Shown here: positions 17,056 to 38,361 of the stretch, piece after piece
Numbering within the stretch: the stretch's first letter is position 1
Layout of the letters: every line of letters begins with the position of its first letter
Source: an uncultured Oscillospiraceae bacterium
GTDB taxonomy: Bacteria; Bacillota; Clostridia; Oscillospirales; Acutalibacteraceae
Direction: 5' to 3'
Assembly (NCBI GenBank): GCA_949295415.1
Contig: CASFLA010000052.1
Coordinates: 25,911 to 89,910, forward strand
DNA length: 64,000 bases
Notes under the pieces: model-generated
What the model was told of the DNA's origin: nothing
Database searches by the model: none
What the model saw: only the letters and a program-made list of their open reading frames with translations
Translations under genes and position numbers: made by a program

Positions 17056-17159
17056 ATAACGATTGTAGTTTGTCTAAACGCTCATAAAGCGTTTAGACAA
17101 GTCACTCAAAAAGTGGCTTTAGCGGCGAAACAAGATGGTTTCGCCTAACCTATTCCATT
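17056..17159 (+). repeat. copy A of a ~105-nt three-hairpin element (candidate 5' leader RNA of the PBP1A gene)
   Basis: About 75% identical to the reverse complement of 34701-34806. Hairpins at 17072-17098, 17099-17119 and 17124-17145. Preceded by TTCAAA-17-TATAAC (17032-17060). Confidence 0.6.
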
Positions 17160-34700: not shown

Positions 34701-34806
34701 AATGGAAAAGGACAGACAAAACAATTCTGTTTCGCCGCAAACAAGCCGCTTAAAAAGTGGCTTGCCGAAACGCTTAAAAAGCGTTTCAACTAACTACAAT
34801 CATTAT
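34701..34806 (-). repeat. copy B of the ~105-nt three-hairpin element (candidate 5' leader RNA of the FkbM gene)
   Basis: Its reverse complement aligns with 17056-17159. Preceded on the minus strand by TTGTTT-17-TATAAT (34833-34805). Runs into the SD GAGGTG and the ATG at 34677. Confidence 0.6.
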
Positions 34807-35558: not shown

Positions 35559-35572
35559 AAAAAGACCTGAAG

Positions 35573-35614
35573 AAGGGAGACACTTCGTAAAGAAGTGTTC
35601 TCCCTTGGTTTTCG
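35573..35614 (+). terminator. rho-independent terminator of the gmhA-like gene
   Basis: Stem aagggagacacttc / gaagtgt(t)ctccctt followed by ggttttcgtt. Confidence 0.7.
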
Positions 35615-35620
35615 TTACAC

Positions 35621-35679
35621 AACAAAAATAATAGCCCACCTGAACGGTGAACTATTATTGTGGCGGAGAGAAGGGGATT
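35621..35679. repeat. left 59-bp direct repeat (duplicate of the tRNA-Ser 3' end plus its terminator)
   Basis: 58/59 identical to 38014-38072. The single mismatch is at 35650. Confidence 0.92.
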
Positions 35680-35712
35680 TTTAAAGAAAATGCCAAAGAG
35701 AATAAAATCAGC

Positions 35713-35925
35713 TTAATTTATGCAAGTAAAGCGCTTAAACACCTTGCCGTCTCTTTCTATCGTTTCGTTCCACAGCGAAGCAGGGCGAACCCAAAGCGTG
35801 CCGCCATCATAAAGCGCTTTATAGATTACCATCGGCTCGAGGGTTTCGGAATTTTTGGCAATGCCGATAACCTCATATTCATTTCCTTTAAAATGGCGAT
35901 ACCGCCCTAATTTAATCTCTTCCAT
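35713..35925 (-). CDS. DUF1653 domain protein
   Basis: 70 aa. Pattern GRYRHFKGNEYEVIGIAKNSETLEPMVIYKALY...WVRP is typical of DUF1653. GGAGG SD. 21 nt after the upstream gene. Confidence 0.75.
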   Translation of the reverse strand: MEEIKLGRYRHFKGNEYEVIGIAKNSETLEPMVIYKALYDGGTLWVRPASLWNETIERDGKVFKRFTCIN

Positions 35926-35946
35926 AGTTTGCCTCCAAAACTTAAA

Positions 35947-36711
35947 TTAAGCCAGGATAGTGTTTAATATTGTTAGGATATCGGTATTATGATTTCTGCT
36001 TAACATACCGAATATTTTAAGCATTTCAATAAACACTTTAATATTTTCTGAATTGATTTTAAACTCTGCCATTTCTTTTGTTTTGGCAGTTCTGCCAAGG
36101 AGTTGTTCTGAATTTTCCAATTCTGTTATAGGAAAGCAGAAATAGAGCATAGGTTGCACACCTATCGCATATTGCTTTTCTTTTATGATTATTTCGGTTA
36201 CCACTTCAAAATTGCCGAATTTATGAACAAGCATAGGGTATTCAACCTGTGTGCGCAAAAACTTTAATCCGTTCAATTCGGTTTCAACGAAATTTGTTCG
36301 CCTTATTGCTAATTGAGGATGTGTTATGGAATTGTCGAAGAAATTACTGTCATTAAGTGATGTAAGGTAGTTTTTAACATTTAACAGCTCTTCCTGGGTG
36401 ATAGTTCCCCAATCGTAAAAATACTTTATGTATTCTGAAAGCTCATATAATGCTTTTTCTTTGCCGTTAGCGCCTGTAAAACGAATACTCGGCATAGTGG
36501 TTCTGCTGAGCTTTTCAGTATCTGCTGTTATTACGTCGTATCCTATTTGCCACTCCACATAACAGTTTTGAGCAAAGGGTTCGCTTCTGGTTGAAACGGG
36601 CACGCCGTATTCATTCAAAATACTTCTGCGCTTAATTCTTGTTTTTTCAGTGCCTTTGGTTAGGGGAATAGCAACCTTTAATTCATTATCTTTTATACTA
36701 CTAATAAACAT
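35947..36711 (-). CDS. hypothetical 254-aa protein, methyltransferase-linked (candidate restriction endonuclease or other effector)
   Basis: GGAGGG SD, 32 nt downstream of the MTase stop, same strand. I could not recognise any family. Confidence 0.6.
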   Translation of the reverse strand: MFISSIKDNELKVAIPLTKGTEKTRIKRRSILNEYGVPVSTRSEPFAQNCYVEWQIGYDVITADTEKLSRTTMPSIRFTGANGKEKALYELSEYIKYFYDWGTITQEELLNVKNYLTSLNDSNFFDNSITHPQLAIRRTNFVETELNGLKFLRTQVEYPMLVHKFGNFEVVTEIIIKEKQYAIGVQPMLYFCFPITELENSEQLLGRTAKTKEMAEFKINSENIKVFIEMLKIFGMLSRNHNTDILTILNTILA

Positions 36712-36743
36712 AGATTCCCTCCGTTAGTTACTTTGGTAAAAGC

Positions 36744-37862
36744 TCATTTACTGAATAATTGTGCAAAATAATTATCTATCAAAGCATAGTTGTTGTTATG
36801 AGTATATTTAATACCTTTGTTTTTAAGCCAAGGGTATCTTTCGATACTGTTGGTTATAAAAACATCTTTTATGGGTTTGAACTTCTCGTTGTCTATAAAC
36901 ACATCAATATTGCCGTAATAATAAGGAAGTTTTTCTATATATCGCTTAAAAACATCAACATAACAATAATATTCAAACTTTCTTTTATCGACTATGATAG
37001 CGTTAGGCCCGTATTCCTCAATAAAGGTTCTACTACGGTTTAACGCGTTTATATCACGCATGGTGAAAAACAAAATATCATTTTCTTTGGGCTGGTCATA
37101 TTTTGACGGATATTTTGAAATGTAATTCTTTATTGAGTCATAATCAATACGGAATGTTTTGCCATCGATAGTTTTAAAGACTGTGTTCAAAATTTCATTG
37201 TAGGGCATTCCTTTTGAATCCCTTTTATATAATGCTATTATAATCGGGAACCCTTTCGTTTTAGATGTAAAACTAAAGCTTTGACTGTTTATAATCGAAT
37301 GGTCAATCAATGAATAATTACTATAAAATGGTTTTAGCAAATTGTAATTTGCTTTTTTAATCATGTATGAAAGGGGATGTAAAACAGCAACGTAATCAGC
37401 TTTAAGTTTATTGAATGAAAGCATAAAAGATATGCCGAGGTCTCTGGTTTTCAAATCGGGATCTACTGCACAGGGCTTTTGACTTTTCAAATCACTTTTA
37501 ACCCTTGAGGTTGTATCATTATAAGGGGGGTTGCCGATAATAATTATTTTGCTGTCTGATTGCAAGTTCACTGATTCTCTTGAGAAACCGGATAAAGTAT
37601 TGAGGCAATAATAATCACTTCTTTTATCATTCATGGTTGCAACTTCGATTGCTTTTGCATCAATATCGCATCCTATAGTTTTCAAATTTTCAAGCACTCG
37701 CAGAAATGAACCATAACCACATGATGAATCAATGTAAACATAATCGTCATAATTGGAGATGTTATGCTTAATTTTATCTATCAGATTTTCAACAAAAGCT
37801 TCGGGTGTATAAAAACAGCCAAAGTTCGTCATTTCTTTATATGTAAGGTGGTTTTGAGGCAT
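36744..37862 (-). CDS. gamma-class (TaqI/Eco57I-like) N6-adenine DNA methyltransferase
   Basis: Motif X FYTPEAFV, motif I DSSCGYGSFL, and motif IV IIIGNPPYND, in that order. AAGGAG SD favours the ATG at 37862 over 37871. Confidence 0.85.
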   Translation of the reverse strand: MPQNHLTYKEMTNFGCFYTPEAFVENLIDKIKHNISNYDDYVYIDSSCGYGSFLRVLENLKTIGCDIDAKAIEVATMNDKRSDYYCLNTLSGFSRESVNLQSDSKIIIIGNPPYNDTTSRVKSDLKSQKPCAVDPDLKTRDLGISFMLSFNKLKADYVAVLHPLSYMIKKANYNLLKPFYSNYSLIDHSIINSQSFSFTSKTKGFPIIIALYKRDSKGMPYNEILNTVFKTIDGKTFRIDYDSIKNYISKYPSKYDQPKENDILFFTMRDINALNRSRTFIEEYGPNAIIVDKRKFEYYCYVDVFKRYIEKLPYYYGNIDVFIDNEKFKPIKDVFITNSIERYPWLKNKGIKYTHNNNYALIDNYFAQLFSK

Positions 37863-37911
37863 ATAACACATCTCCTTTCTGAAATAATAAATAAATATAA
37901 ATTACAATTAC

Positions 37912-37940
37912 ATTATAAAACTTTTAATTTGCTTCTGCAA
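37912..37940 (-). promoter_or_regulatory. sigma-A-type promoter of the island operon (TTGCAG-17-TATAAT)
   Basis: On the minus strand, -35 at 37940-37935 and -10 at 37917-37912. Confidence 0.5.
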
Positions 37941-38013
37941 CTAAAATTTGCTTTAGTTATTTCGTTTGTCAAAATATCGTTTGCTCCCTCCTTGTTCGAA
38001 TCCCCTTAATAGA

Positions 38014-38072
38014 AACAAAAATAATAGCCCACCTGAACGGTGGACTATTATTGTGGCGGAGAGAAGGGGATT
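38014..38072. repeat. right 59-bp direct repeat (authentic tRNA-Ser 3' end plus terminator)
   Basis: 58/59 identical to 35621-35679. Its last 19 bp are tRNA nucleotides from the T-loop to CCA. Confidence 0.92.
38017..38053 (-). terminator. terminator of tRNA-Ser
   Basis: Minus strand: aataatagtccacc-gttc-aggtgggctattatt followed by TTTTGTTT. Confidence 0.6.
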
Positions 38073-38145
38073 CGAACCCCTGAATGGGTATTAGCCATTA
38101 CACGATTTCCAATCGTGCGCCTTAGACCAGCTCAGCCATCTCTCC
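38054..38145 (-). tRNA. tRNA-Ser (anticodon GGA), type II with a long variable arm and encoded CCA
   Basis: Hand-folded cloverleaf. Acceptor GGAGAGA/TCTCTCC, anticodon stem CACGA/TCGTG with loop TTGGAAA, variable stem AATGG/CCATT, T arm AGGGG-TTCGAAT-CCCCT, discriminator G plus CCA. 92 nt. Confidence 0.93.
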
Positions 38146-38168
38146 GTACATATTTGGTTGACTAACCC

Positions 38169-38197
38169 ATTATAATGTCCCGTTCTCTAAAAATCAA
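38169..38197 (-). promoter_or_regulatory. sigma-A promoter of tRNA-Ser (TTGATT-17-TATAAT)
   Basis: On the minus strand, -35 at 38197-38192 and -10 at 38174-38169, about 24 nt upstream of the tRNA 5' end. Confidence 0.5.
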
Positions 38198-38361
38198 GAC
38201 CTTTTTTAAATTTTATTTACAGTAATTTTCAATTCGCTGTTAACATTTGGGAGAATTGAAAGAATGCGATGCGCCTTGCCAACAATAATACTTTATGTGA
38301 TATGCACCCCAAAAATTAGACGCTTTTGTGGTGCATATCAAGGAAACTACTGCGGTTTTAA

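Follow-up and report, generated by a model that had tools for sequence, protein, structure and literature searches.

Here we describe a restriction-modification locus in an uncultured gut bacterium of Clostridia type, together with the direct repeat that surrounds it. The window, which is the whole 64-kb stretch of DNA that was analysed, carries on its minus strand a tRNA-Ser(GGA) gene with an encoded CCA end (38054-38145; identified by ARAGORN and by Rfam, RF00005 at 55.7 bits). The 156 nt on the 5' side of this gene (38146-38301, minus strand) contain a promoter, TTGATT-17-TATAAT, at 38197-38169. On the 3' side lies an insert of 2334 bp that is bounded by two copies of a 59-nt repeat in direct orientation.

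The left copy (DR-L; 35621-35679, minus strand) and the right copy (DR-R; 38014-38072, minus strand) match at 58 of 59 positions (A at 35650 versus G at 38043), are spaced 2393 bp apart, and are the only copies in the window; two matches to the 59-mer were obtained in 0 of 100 shuffled sequences. DR-R comprises the final 19 nt of the functional tRNA-Ser gene and the 40 nt that follow it, including a terminator hairpin (38020-38052) of 14 pairs with a 5-nt loop and a subsequent T-run. DR-L is a tRNA-less duplicate with the same 19 nt and its own terminator hairpin (35627-35659). Each copy scores as an intrinsic terminator on the minus strand, with RNA folds of -25.1 kcal/mol (right) and -20.8 kcal/mol (left). 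The edge of the repeat cuts the T-loop of the tRNA at TTCG|AAT, which we take to be a classical crossover position of tRNA-targeting integrases. Directly to the left of DR-L is a further intrinsic terminator hairpin on the gmhA side (35571-35620, plus strand; -25.2 kcal/mol, z = -4.3). The repeats, the nature of the right copy and the position of the left copy just past the gmhA-side terminator are thus as an earlier note on this DNA had described them. The 50-nt gmhA-side hairpin was also considered as novel filler DNA, a candidate that was dropped because its right edge bears a motif, ACACAAC, that relatives (L094, L090, L086) also have in the spacer separating gmhA from the ABC ATPase gene. 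This suggests a native, fast-evolving gmhA terminator; no template for the hairpin was found elsewhere in the window.

The insert is filled by the three minus-strand open reading frames already recognized in the earlier note (36744-37871, 35947-36711 and 35713-35925), which are separated by 32 and 21 nt and leave 142 and 33 nt at the ends of the insert. No other mobile-element genes are present. The sequence of the cargo identifies it as a complete Type II restriction-modification operon of the PabI type. The first gene (M; 36744-37871, minus strand) encodes a gamma-class N6-adenine DNA methyltransferase of the M.PabI type and bacterial lineage (PADLOC MTase_II PDLC03275, 2.4e-71), with a length of 375 aa from the first ATG or 372 aa from the ATG at 37862 chosen by the gene callers. 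Motif I (DSSCGYG) lies ahead of motif IV (NPPY), with the target-recognition domain at the C-terminal end; a relative of M with a solved structure was not detectable by sequence.

The second gene (R; 35947-36711, minus strand) encodes a 254-aa restriction DNA glycosylase / AP lyase of the R.PabI family (R.PabI, R.HpyAXII, R.CcoLI), whose members have the HALFPIPE fold and recognize GTAC. The protein matches the family profile end to end (Pfam RE_R_Pab1, PF09522; 6.2e-44, 149 bits against a cut-off of 25) and was also recovered in the PADLOC search that the earlier note had suggested (REase_II, 1.4e-21). Among solved structures it matches R.CcoLI (PDB 7cfa; 7.4e-54 over residues 13-253) and PabI (2dvy; 5.6e-19), and it is approximately 43% identical to R.CcoLI-like enzymes. 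Residues Y58, K86, H241 and D244 are invariant across an alignment of 38 homologs (A3). In HMMER alignments, read by eye, Y58, H241 and D244 pair with the Tyr, His and Asp of the catalytic triad and K86 with the AP-lyase Lys, all of which R thus shares with R.CcoLI. The catalytic residues of PabI are Tyr68, His211 and Asp214, and the AP-lyase Lys of mesophilic members is Lys71 of CcoLI (PMC7806768). R follows M in the same orientation after 32 nt, and M lies directly 5' of R in 80 of the 80 metagenome loci that include that end. The same order and methyltransferase class, a gamma-class M upstream of R, have been reported for the bacterial PabI lineage (PMC4615327).

The last gene of the operon, a passenger (35713-35925, minus strand), encodes a 70-aa DUF1653 protein (Pfam PF07866, 1.2e-26; PDB 3be3, 3.9e-9). 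Literature and structures were uninformative about this family, which is named in a single unrelated paper and has no named structure, 3be3 being an uncharacterized protein. Its co-transcription with M and R distinguishes the operon from the PabI family at large; the gene is missing from the PabI cassettes of L098-L177 and accompanies the cassette in this clade only. A putative operon promoter, TTGCAG-17-TATAAT (37913-37941, minus strand), is conserved in the relatives with 97% identity (alignment A2). Both hexamers are located at 37941-37913 as proposed in the earlier note, but the -35 hexamer is weak and fits the consensus at three of six positions only, which is why a consensus scan did not list it. 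DR-L is the terminator of the M-R-DUF1653 operon.

In the earlier note the cargo had been read as a methyltransferase, an unknown protein and a DUF1653 protein. The first and last assignments hold, whereas the unknown 254-aa protein is the R.PabI-family enzyme, and the suspected defence-type unit proved to be a complete restriction-modification system by Pfam, PADLOC and PDB matches. The corrected annotation makes the middle gene the restriction enzyme of a base-excision (PabI-type) system, and the operon is an ordinary member of this already known kind. It also places a little-sampled family in uncultured gut Clostridia, whereas the bacterial members in a 2015 survey were almost only from Epsilonproteobacteria (Helicobacter and Campylobacter; PMC4615327).

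The specificity of the system is predicted to be GTAC, the sequence recognized by the PabI family, and the genome around it is depleted in this tetranucleotide. No other 4-nt palindrome in the window is as depleted as GTAC, of which 4 occurrences were observed and 57.5 expected (ratio 0.07). The ratio of observed to expected occurrences was 0.22 in loci of the same species and 0.99 in unrelated control loci, and relatives with 78-87% identity had none against 11.5 expected. A depletion that extends across the clade points to a long residence of the operon. Characterized methyltransferases of the PabI type produce GTm6AC. M would protect the GTAC sites of the host by methylation, and R, as a glycosylase / AP lyase, would excise adenine from unmethylated GTAC in incoming DNA. 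The G + C content of the insert (33.7%) is lower than that of the window (40.4%), as the earlier note had stated, but the flanking 400-nt windows have 40-47% and do not reach the 53% quoted there. The low value is also compatible with a foreign origin.

At least nine related contigs carry the block of tRNA-Ser, terminator, M, R and DUF1653 at the same locus with approximately 97% nucleotide identity. Nine of them (L095, L096 and L182-L188) match the window from 35677 to 38301, the latter position being the outer edge of the common block. A further contig (L097), also from this locus, begins inside the M gene and carries the cassette at 81% identity, followed by the same SBP context as in the contigs with ~97% identity. 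These relatives had been considered as three independent contexts (L095, L096, L097) that define the end of the cassette at 35680, which was dropped because they share one common context. A recent horizontal transfer of the ~97% block was likewise dropped: AraC of the same strains (L189-L193) agrees with that of the window at 94-97%, so that 97% represents ordinary within-species divergence. The 59-mer is single-copy in every related contig that reaches the tRNA end, and DR-L is absent from L095, L096 and L182-L188.

Overlapping contigs (L189/L181, L095, L097/L183 and L086/L094) give the order AraC, GH2, MFS, tRNA-Ser, M, R, DUF1653, SBP, permease, ATPase, gmhA. This order is kept in the window, without the GH2-MFS pair and without the ABC operon, and DR-L occupies the place that the three-gene amino-acid ABC-transporter operon has in the relatives. 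The ancestral state on the gmhA side was inferred from relatives that are 13-22% diverged, as no contig with at least 95% identity covers that side. In four contigs that extend past the ATPase gene (L182-L185; ~97%), other genes and not gmhA come next, which indicates that a simple deletion model understates the fluidity of the locus. A third arrangement is present in L189, where a terminator-like hairpin lies beside the MFS gene in opposite orientation.

Since same-locus relatives with one repeat copy already contain the cassette, the repeat must be younger than the arrival of the cassette at this site. Together with the depletion of GTAC in both the window and its relatives, this makes the operon an old resident at tRNA-Ser(GGA) in the clade; on the available alignments, only the second repeat copy is new, and DR-L is specific to the lineage of the window. 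The duplication appears to be recent, because the two copies in the window match at 58 of 59 positions while the terminator differs from that of L095 at 6 of ~40 positions. A reading of the mini-island of the earlier note as a recent 2.3-kb insertion that generated the repeats is therefore not supported, given the one-copy relatives with the cassette, the GTAC depletion and the lack of an empty site in the scans described below. As an observation against such an insertion, the earlier note had named relatives with the same genes between the same repeats; half of this holds, as the relatives do have the same genes at the same site, but with a single repeat copy. The locus calls for caution in the prediction of islands, as a repeat of a tRNA end around defence genes of low G + C content mimics a fresh integration, while population comparison and the clade-wide GTAC depletion show old genes and a new repeat.

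We consider it probable that a long-standing PabI-family operon 3' of tRNA-Ser(GGA) acquired the second repeat copy by recent illegitimate recombination, in one or two events. In the preferred route, a tandem duplication or template switch would have led from the end of the cassette back into the T-loop of the tRNA, and a subsequent deletion or switch would have used a 3-nt microhomology (GTT) at the stop codon of the ATPase gene. The outer junction does have this GTT microhomology beside the ancestral ATPase stop codon, and the inner junction has no clear microhomology. By another route, the cassette would have been lost and a circular molecule of cassette plus terminator re-inserted by homologous recombination. 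We infer both the order and the mechanism of these steps from the junction sequences. The new copy would replace the intrinsic terminator of the operon that was lost with the deletion. The two copies would also turn the operon into a cassette that is open to RecA-type recombination by the host, so that the 2393-bp unit could be excised or amplified with the tRNA gene left undamaged. An excisable or amplifiable state is reportedly what the "virus-like life cycle" model of the Kobayashi laboratory requires of restriction-modification units.

For restriction-modification units, insertion with long target duplication was reportedly described by Nobusato et al. in 2000. Applied to the window, this would mean a true insertion, by re-insertion into a strain that lacked the cassette and the ABC operon, which we regard as rather unlikely. 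A prior loss would have brought tRNA-Ser, with its terminator, directly next to the gmhA terminator, and circular or linear DNA from a sister strain, consisting of the cassette and 59 bp of tRNA flank, would have entered by a Campbell-type crossover that duplicated the 59-bp target. A donor would be at hand in the sister strains, in which the cassette is contiguous with exactly this tRNA flank, and the near-identity of the copies fits a recent event. The unit also resembles those compiled by Furuta, Abe and Kobayashi (2010; PMC2853133): it consists of restriction-modification genes only, measures 2.3 kb (well within 20 kb), has no recombinase or other mobility gene, has a lower G + C content than its surroundings, and is flanked by near-perfect repeats longer than 30 bp (59 bp, two copies across the 64 kb of the window). 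An analogue was found in L171, where a PabI cassette is enclosed by two 41-nt copies (40 of 41 identical) of a different tRNA-Ser(GGA) end and terminator, with a putative DEAD-box helicase gene beyond, and M-R units of ~2 kb with 88-98% identity are present in many contexts. Against re-insertion stand the three events that it requires (deletion, circle formation and integration) and the agreement between the identity of the cassette (97%) and that of the flanking AraC (94-97%), which gives no signal of transfer.

The published cases of long target duplication rest on an empty site with one repeat copy (PMC2853133), whereas the one-copy relatives of the window keep the cassette. The check for an empty site in relatives that the earlier note had suggested turned out negative, as all one-copy relatives recovered still carry the cassette. 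When the gmhA-like protein was used as the seed for scanning GTDB genomes, no relative exceeded 57% identity, and an exact DNA pattern from the repeat had no match in JGI metagenomes. In the closest gmhA homologs (80-89% aa identity), gmhA is followed by the ABC ATPase gene and not by a tRNA, and the contigs of the strains with AraC homologs (94-97%) either end inside the tRNA or carry GH2-MFS. With no cassette-free tRNA-Ser site recovered in the genome and metagenome scans, whose sampling was limited, target duplication could not be demonstrated.

An integrase-mediated relic at the T-loop of tRNA-Ser, with the repeats as attL and attR and the integrase lost or acting in trans, is very unlikely. 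Like tRNA islands and CIME-type elements, the insert lies at a tRNA 3' end, and the repeat contains a tRNA 3' segment that starts in the T-loop (TTCG|AAT). Furuta et al. regard an overlap with a tRNA 3' end, such as the repeat has here, as a sign of the integrase class; restriction-modification islands with an integrase and tRNA 3' repeats are on record as a class (PMC2853133). The window differs from such elements in that three intact open reading frames fill the insert, leaving no integrase gene or remnant; in line with the earlier note, which had seen no integrase or transposase, no match to integrase or transposase families was found in the cargo, in ~3 kb on the gmhA side or in ~9 kb on the AraC side. 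Most of the repeat is not tRNA but extends 40 nt into a fast-evolving, species-specific terminator, and relatives without the distal repeat keep this cassette at the corresponding tRNA, next to a single copy. The duplication in L171 includes only 4 nt of the tRNA, which does not agree with a crossover in the loop.

That the second 59-mer is an assembly artefact or a two-strain chimera is hardly credible: although one sample pair (ERZ16268220 / ERR10610611) is the source of the window as well as of the ENA and Logan contigs that match it, the ENA scaffold (L001/L003) and a single Logan contig assembled with k = 31 (L002; window 35573-38083, from the gmhA terminator through both copies to the tRNA) match exactly across both copies, the cargo and both outer junctions, and the central mismatch should leave no 31-mer common to the copies that could mislead an assembler, just as the junction of cassette end and T-loop, which has no common k-mer, should not arise by k-mer chimerism.

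More than 1100 homologs were seen. None was present on a phage, and conjugative plasmids of Campylobacter alone carried one (43.5%). Flanking repeats in other PabI loci gave a mixed picture, with L171 as the clean analogue; repeats in L146, L129/L156 and L172 were not counted, being far outside the cassette homology or at contig ends. PabI cassettes in metagenomes show a strong enrichment immediately 3' of tRNA genes. A same-strand tRNA gene lies within 500 nt 5' of M in 5 of 33 independent PabI contexts, and in three more short contigs, as against 2 of 865 ORFs (0.2%) in control loci. The tRNAs concerned are Ser-GGA, Ser-TGA, Ser-GCT, Ala and Asp. Neither tRNA adjacency nor long target duplication is mentioned in the PabI-family papers cited here. 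It is conceivable, if distinctly doubtful, that PabI cassettes land 3' of tRNA genes and their terminators independently of integrases, either by homologous recombination anchored on the conserved tRNA or through breaks at terminator hairpins. Each route could sometimes duplicate the tRNA end together with the terminator, as in the window and in L171. The adjacency of PabI cassettes to tRNA 3' ends bears on how defence cassettes without a recombinase choose their sites.

The window contains exactly two copies of the 59-bp direct repeat described in the earlier note (35621-35679 and 38014-38072); they are 58/59 identical, lie 2393 bp apart and were reproduced by no shuffle. A tRNA-Ser(GGA) gene was located at 38054-38145 on the minus strand (ARAGORN and Rfam), so the right copy represents its last 19 nt plus 40 nt carrying a 14-pair hairpin and a T-run. 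By score, both copies are intrinsic terminators on the minus strand, with folds well below those of shuffled controls; the reading of the right copy as a tRNA 3' end with its terminator is thus confirmed. The 2334 bp between the copies are filled by three minus-strand ORFs and have a G + C content of 33.7% vs 40.4% for the window, in line with the lower value noted before. The two-copy structure is not an assembly artefact, since a Logan contig (k = 31; L002) runs across the two copies as well as the outer junctions on either side, in agreement with an ENA scaffold. The tRNA terminator is enclosed by a perfect inverted repeat of 14 nt (37996-38009 and 38064-38077; GTTCGAATCCCCTT and AAGGGGATTCGAAC), of which one arm lies just within the cassette and the other across the repeat/T-loop boundary.

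Judged from its predicted proteins, the cargo is a complete restriction-modification system, a PabI-type operon. The earlier note had named the methyltransferase and the DUF1653 protein correctly and left the 254-aa protein (35947-36711) as unknown; the latter is an R.PabI-family enzyme (Pfam RE_R_Pab1, 6e-44) that matches the crystal-structure sequence of R.CcoLI (7cfa) at 7e-54 and R.PabI at 6e-19. In alignments read by eye, its residues Y58, H241 and D244 correspond to the catalytic Tyr68, His211 and Asp214 of PabI, and K86 to the AP-lyase Lys71 of R.CcoLI (roles from PMC7806768); all four are invariant across 38 homologs. The 375-aa methyltransferase encoded upstream (36744-37871) matches the PADLOC Type II methyltransferase model (2e-71) and has motif I ahead of NPPY and a C-terminal target-recognition domain, the gamma-class layout reported for bacterial homologs of M.PabI. 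The only structural relative of the DUF1653 protein (35713-35925) is an uncharacterised structural-genomics entry. All characterised members of the PabI family recognise GTAC and excise its unmethylated adenine (PMC7806768, PMC10273834). The operon belongs to two known kinds, the PabI family and the restriction-modification units located between long direct repeats.

The evidence speaks against a recent acquisition of this operon. A restriction enzyme of 98% identity and the other members of its cluster are present on contigs from nine or more further samples (L095, L096, L182-L188). These contigs match the window only over 35677-38301 (~97%), a stretch made up of the tRNA with its terminator, the 156 nt on its upstream side and the three genes. 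Wherever one of them extends to the tRNA end, the 59-mer is present just once, and past DUF1653 they run into a different terminator and then an ABC-transporter operon (SBP, permease, ATPase); the same downstream context follows an 81%-identical cassette on contig L097. The locus of the relatives, rebuilt from overlapping contigs (L181/L095, 82%; L097 and L183/L086, 85%; L183/L094, 92%; L189-L192 joining AraC to GH2-MFS), reads AraC, GH2, MFS, tRNA-Ser, methyltransferase, restriction enzyme, DUF1653, SBP, permease, ATPase, gmhA, and the window has the same order without GH2-MFS and without the ABC operon. Because AraC of L189-L193 is itself 94-97% identical to that of the window, the tRNA-cassette block with its 97% shows ordinary within-species divergence and no signal of transfer. 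The tRNA of the window (38085-38105) differs from that of the ~97% relatives (L095 2790-2812) at two positions, which compensate each other within the variable arm (GTAATGG...CCATTC vs GTAACGG...CCGTTC); L095 also largely keeps the 14-nt inverted repeat.

Independent support against recent acquisition comes from GTAC, the most depleted 4-nt palindrome of the window (4 observed vs 57.5 expected), which is also depleted in same-species loci (5 vs 22.3) and in 78-87% relatives (0 vs 11.5), vs a ratio of 0.99 in unrelated control loci (849 kb). Depletion of this kind results when a genome has long been exposed to a restriction system specific for GTAC. The mini-island of the earlier note, read as freshly integrated, has partial support: the repeats stand, and the cassette in at least nine samples, the single 59-mer on those contigs that reach the tRNA end and the GTAC depletion speak against a recent arrival. 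One of the four GTAC sites (38146-38149) abuts the 5' end of tRNA-Ser and is kept in L095. GATC is strongly depleted as well, with observed/expected ratios of 0.15 in the window (1-64000), 0.11-0.25 in relatives (L086, L089, L090, L094, L181, L182, L185, L189, L190) vs 0.83 in control loci, and ACGT and CATG are moderately depleted, which suggests further restriction systems in the clade, e.g. a GATC-specific one.

Comparison with these contigs indicates that the left copy is specific to the lineage of the window. It is also recent: the two copies differ at 1/59 positions, whereas a comparison of this terminator in the window and in L095 gives 6 differences over ~40 positions. The left copy occupies the exact place of the relatives' ABC operon. 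Its outer edge (window TTTTTGTT/GTGTAACG; relatives TAA/GTTGTGT, TAA being the ATPase stop) shows microhomology of 3 nt (GTT) at the stop codon, and the inner edge links CTTTAA, the end of the cassette, to AATCCCC from the T-loop of the tRNA, with one ambiguous A. We infer that illegitimate recombination produced the left copy, along one of three paths. The 19 nt, terminator and cassette may have been duplicated in tandem, with the second cassette then deleted together with the ABC operon; the template may have been switched in two steps; or the cassette may have been lost and a circle bearing cassette and native 59-bp flank re-inserted in the Campbell manner, which would correspond to the "long target duplication" described by Nobusato 2000 and Furuta 2010. 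Neither a cassette-free site nor a close relative on the gmhA side was found among the relatives recovered. An integrase origin of the repeat pair is unlikely, given that the cargo and the neighbouring genes shown hold no recombinase gene or remnant (as already noted earlier), that the repeat is mostly species-specific terminator sequence and that relatives keep the cassette with a single 59-mer.

At present, the left copy stands in for the lost terminator of the operon, as terminator scores and folds on the minus strand suggest. Through the 59-bp copies, host homologous recombination could release a circle of 2393 bp with the tRNA left intact. As is established for Type II systems, post-segregational killing would work against such a loss of the cassette. 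Alternatively, recombination between the copies could multiply the unit; PMC2853133 cites documented cases in which restriction-modification genes were amplified between long direct repeats. The architecture of the window is repeated independently on metagenomic contig L171 (829-3342), where a different tRNA-Ser(GGA) is followed by a 41-nt repeat made up of the final 4 nt of that tRNA and the terminator, a small ORF that may encode an HTH protein, methyltransferase, restriction enzyme and a second copy (40/41), with a putative DEAD-box helicase gene (N-terminal motifs) beyond.

In 80 metagenomic loci with R.PabI homologs, the methyltransferase always precedes the restriction enzyme and DUF1653 is absent; units of ~2 kb with 88-98% identity were found in many unrelated contexts. 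A same-strand tRNA (Ser-GGA twice, Ala-CGC, Asp-GTC, Ser-TGA) ends at most 500 nt upstream of the methyltransferase in 5 of 33 distinct contexts, and in three further short contigs, vs 2 of 865 control ORFs (binomial P ~1.5e-8), an enrichment of ~60-fold. Neither tRNA adjacency nor long target duplication of the family is mentioned in the 2015 PabI transmission paper or the 2023 review, and this statistic is the one lead worth pursuing. Cassettes directly 3' of different tRNAs and on their strand (among L098-L177) include those at L132 4525-4845, L143 2123-2322, L157 4598-4845, L170 40-225, L136 193-446 and L173 38-458; several share a conserved promoter, CTTATCAATAnTAnAAAAAACTGATATAAT, that starts right after a terminator. 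Judged from N-terminal sequences, no integrase-like ORF is obvious downstream of the tRNA-adjacent cassettes. A motif AAGTAAAATAAGGGGTTCT...CGATT, which may be an att-like or repeat element, lies ahead of the cassette once in L136 (277-400) and twice in L173 (128-420), downstream of two different tRNA-Ser(GGA) genes.

Homology between the window and the AraC-GH2 strains breaks off within the loop belonging to the ancestral AraC/GH2 terminator (38302-38349 and 38341). At that point, ahead of the upstream block of the tRNA that begins at 38301, the window carries another hairpin (arms 38289-38314 and 38324-38349); the junction of the GH2-MFS deletion therefore also lies at a terminator. Contig L189 (5061-5147), from a strain with ~95% identity to the window, shows a third arrangement of the locus, perhaps an inversion, in which AraC-GH2-MFS is followed by 87 unrelated nt and, at the contig end, a hairpin homologous to the tRNA-Ser terminator in opposite orientation. 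The intergenic region between an FkbM-type methyltransferase gene and gmhA (34701-34806) is ~75% similar over 106 nt to 17056-17159, which may reflect a shared regulatory or leader element.
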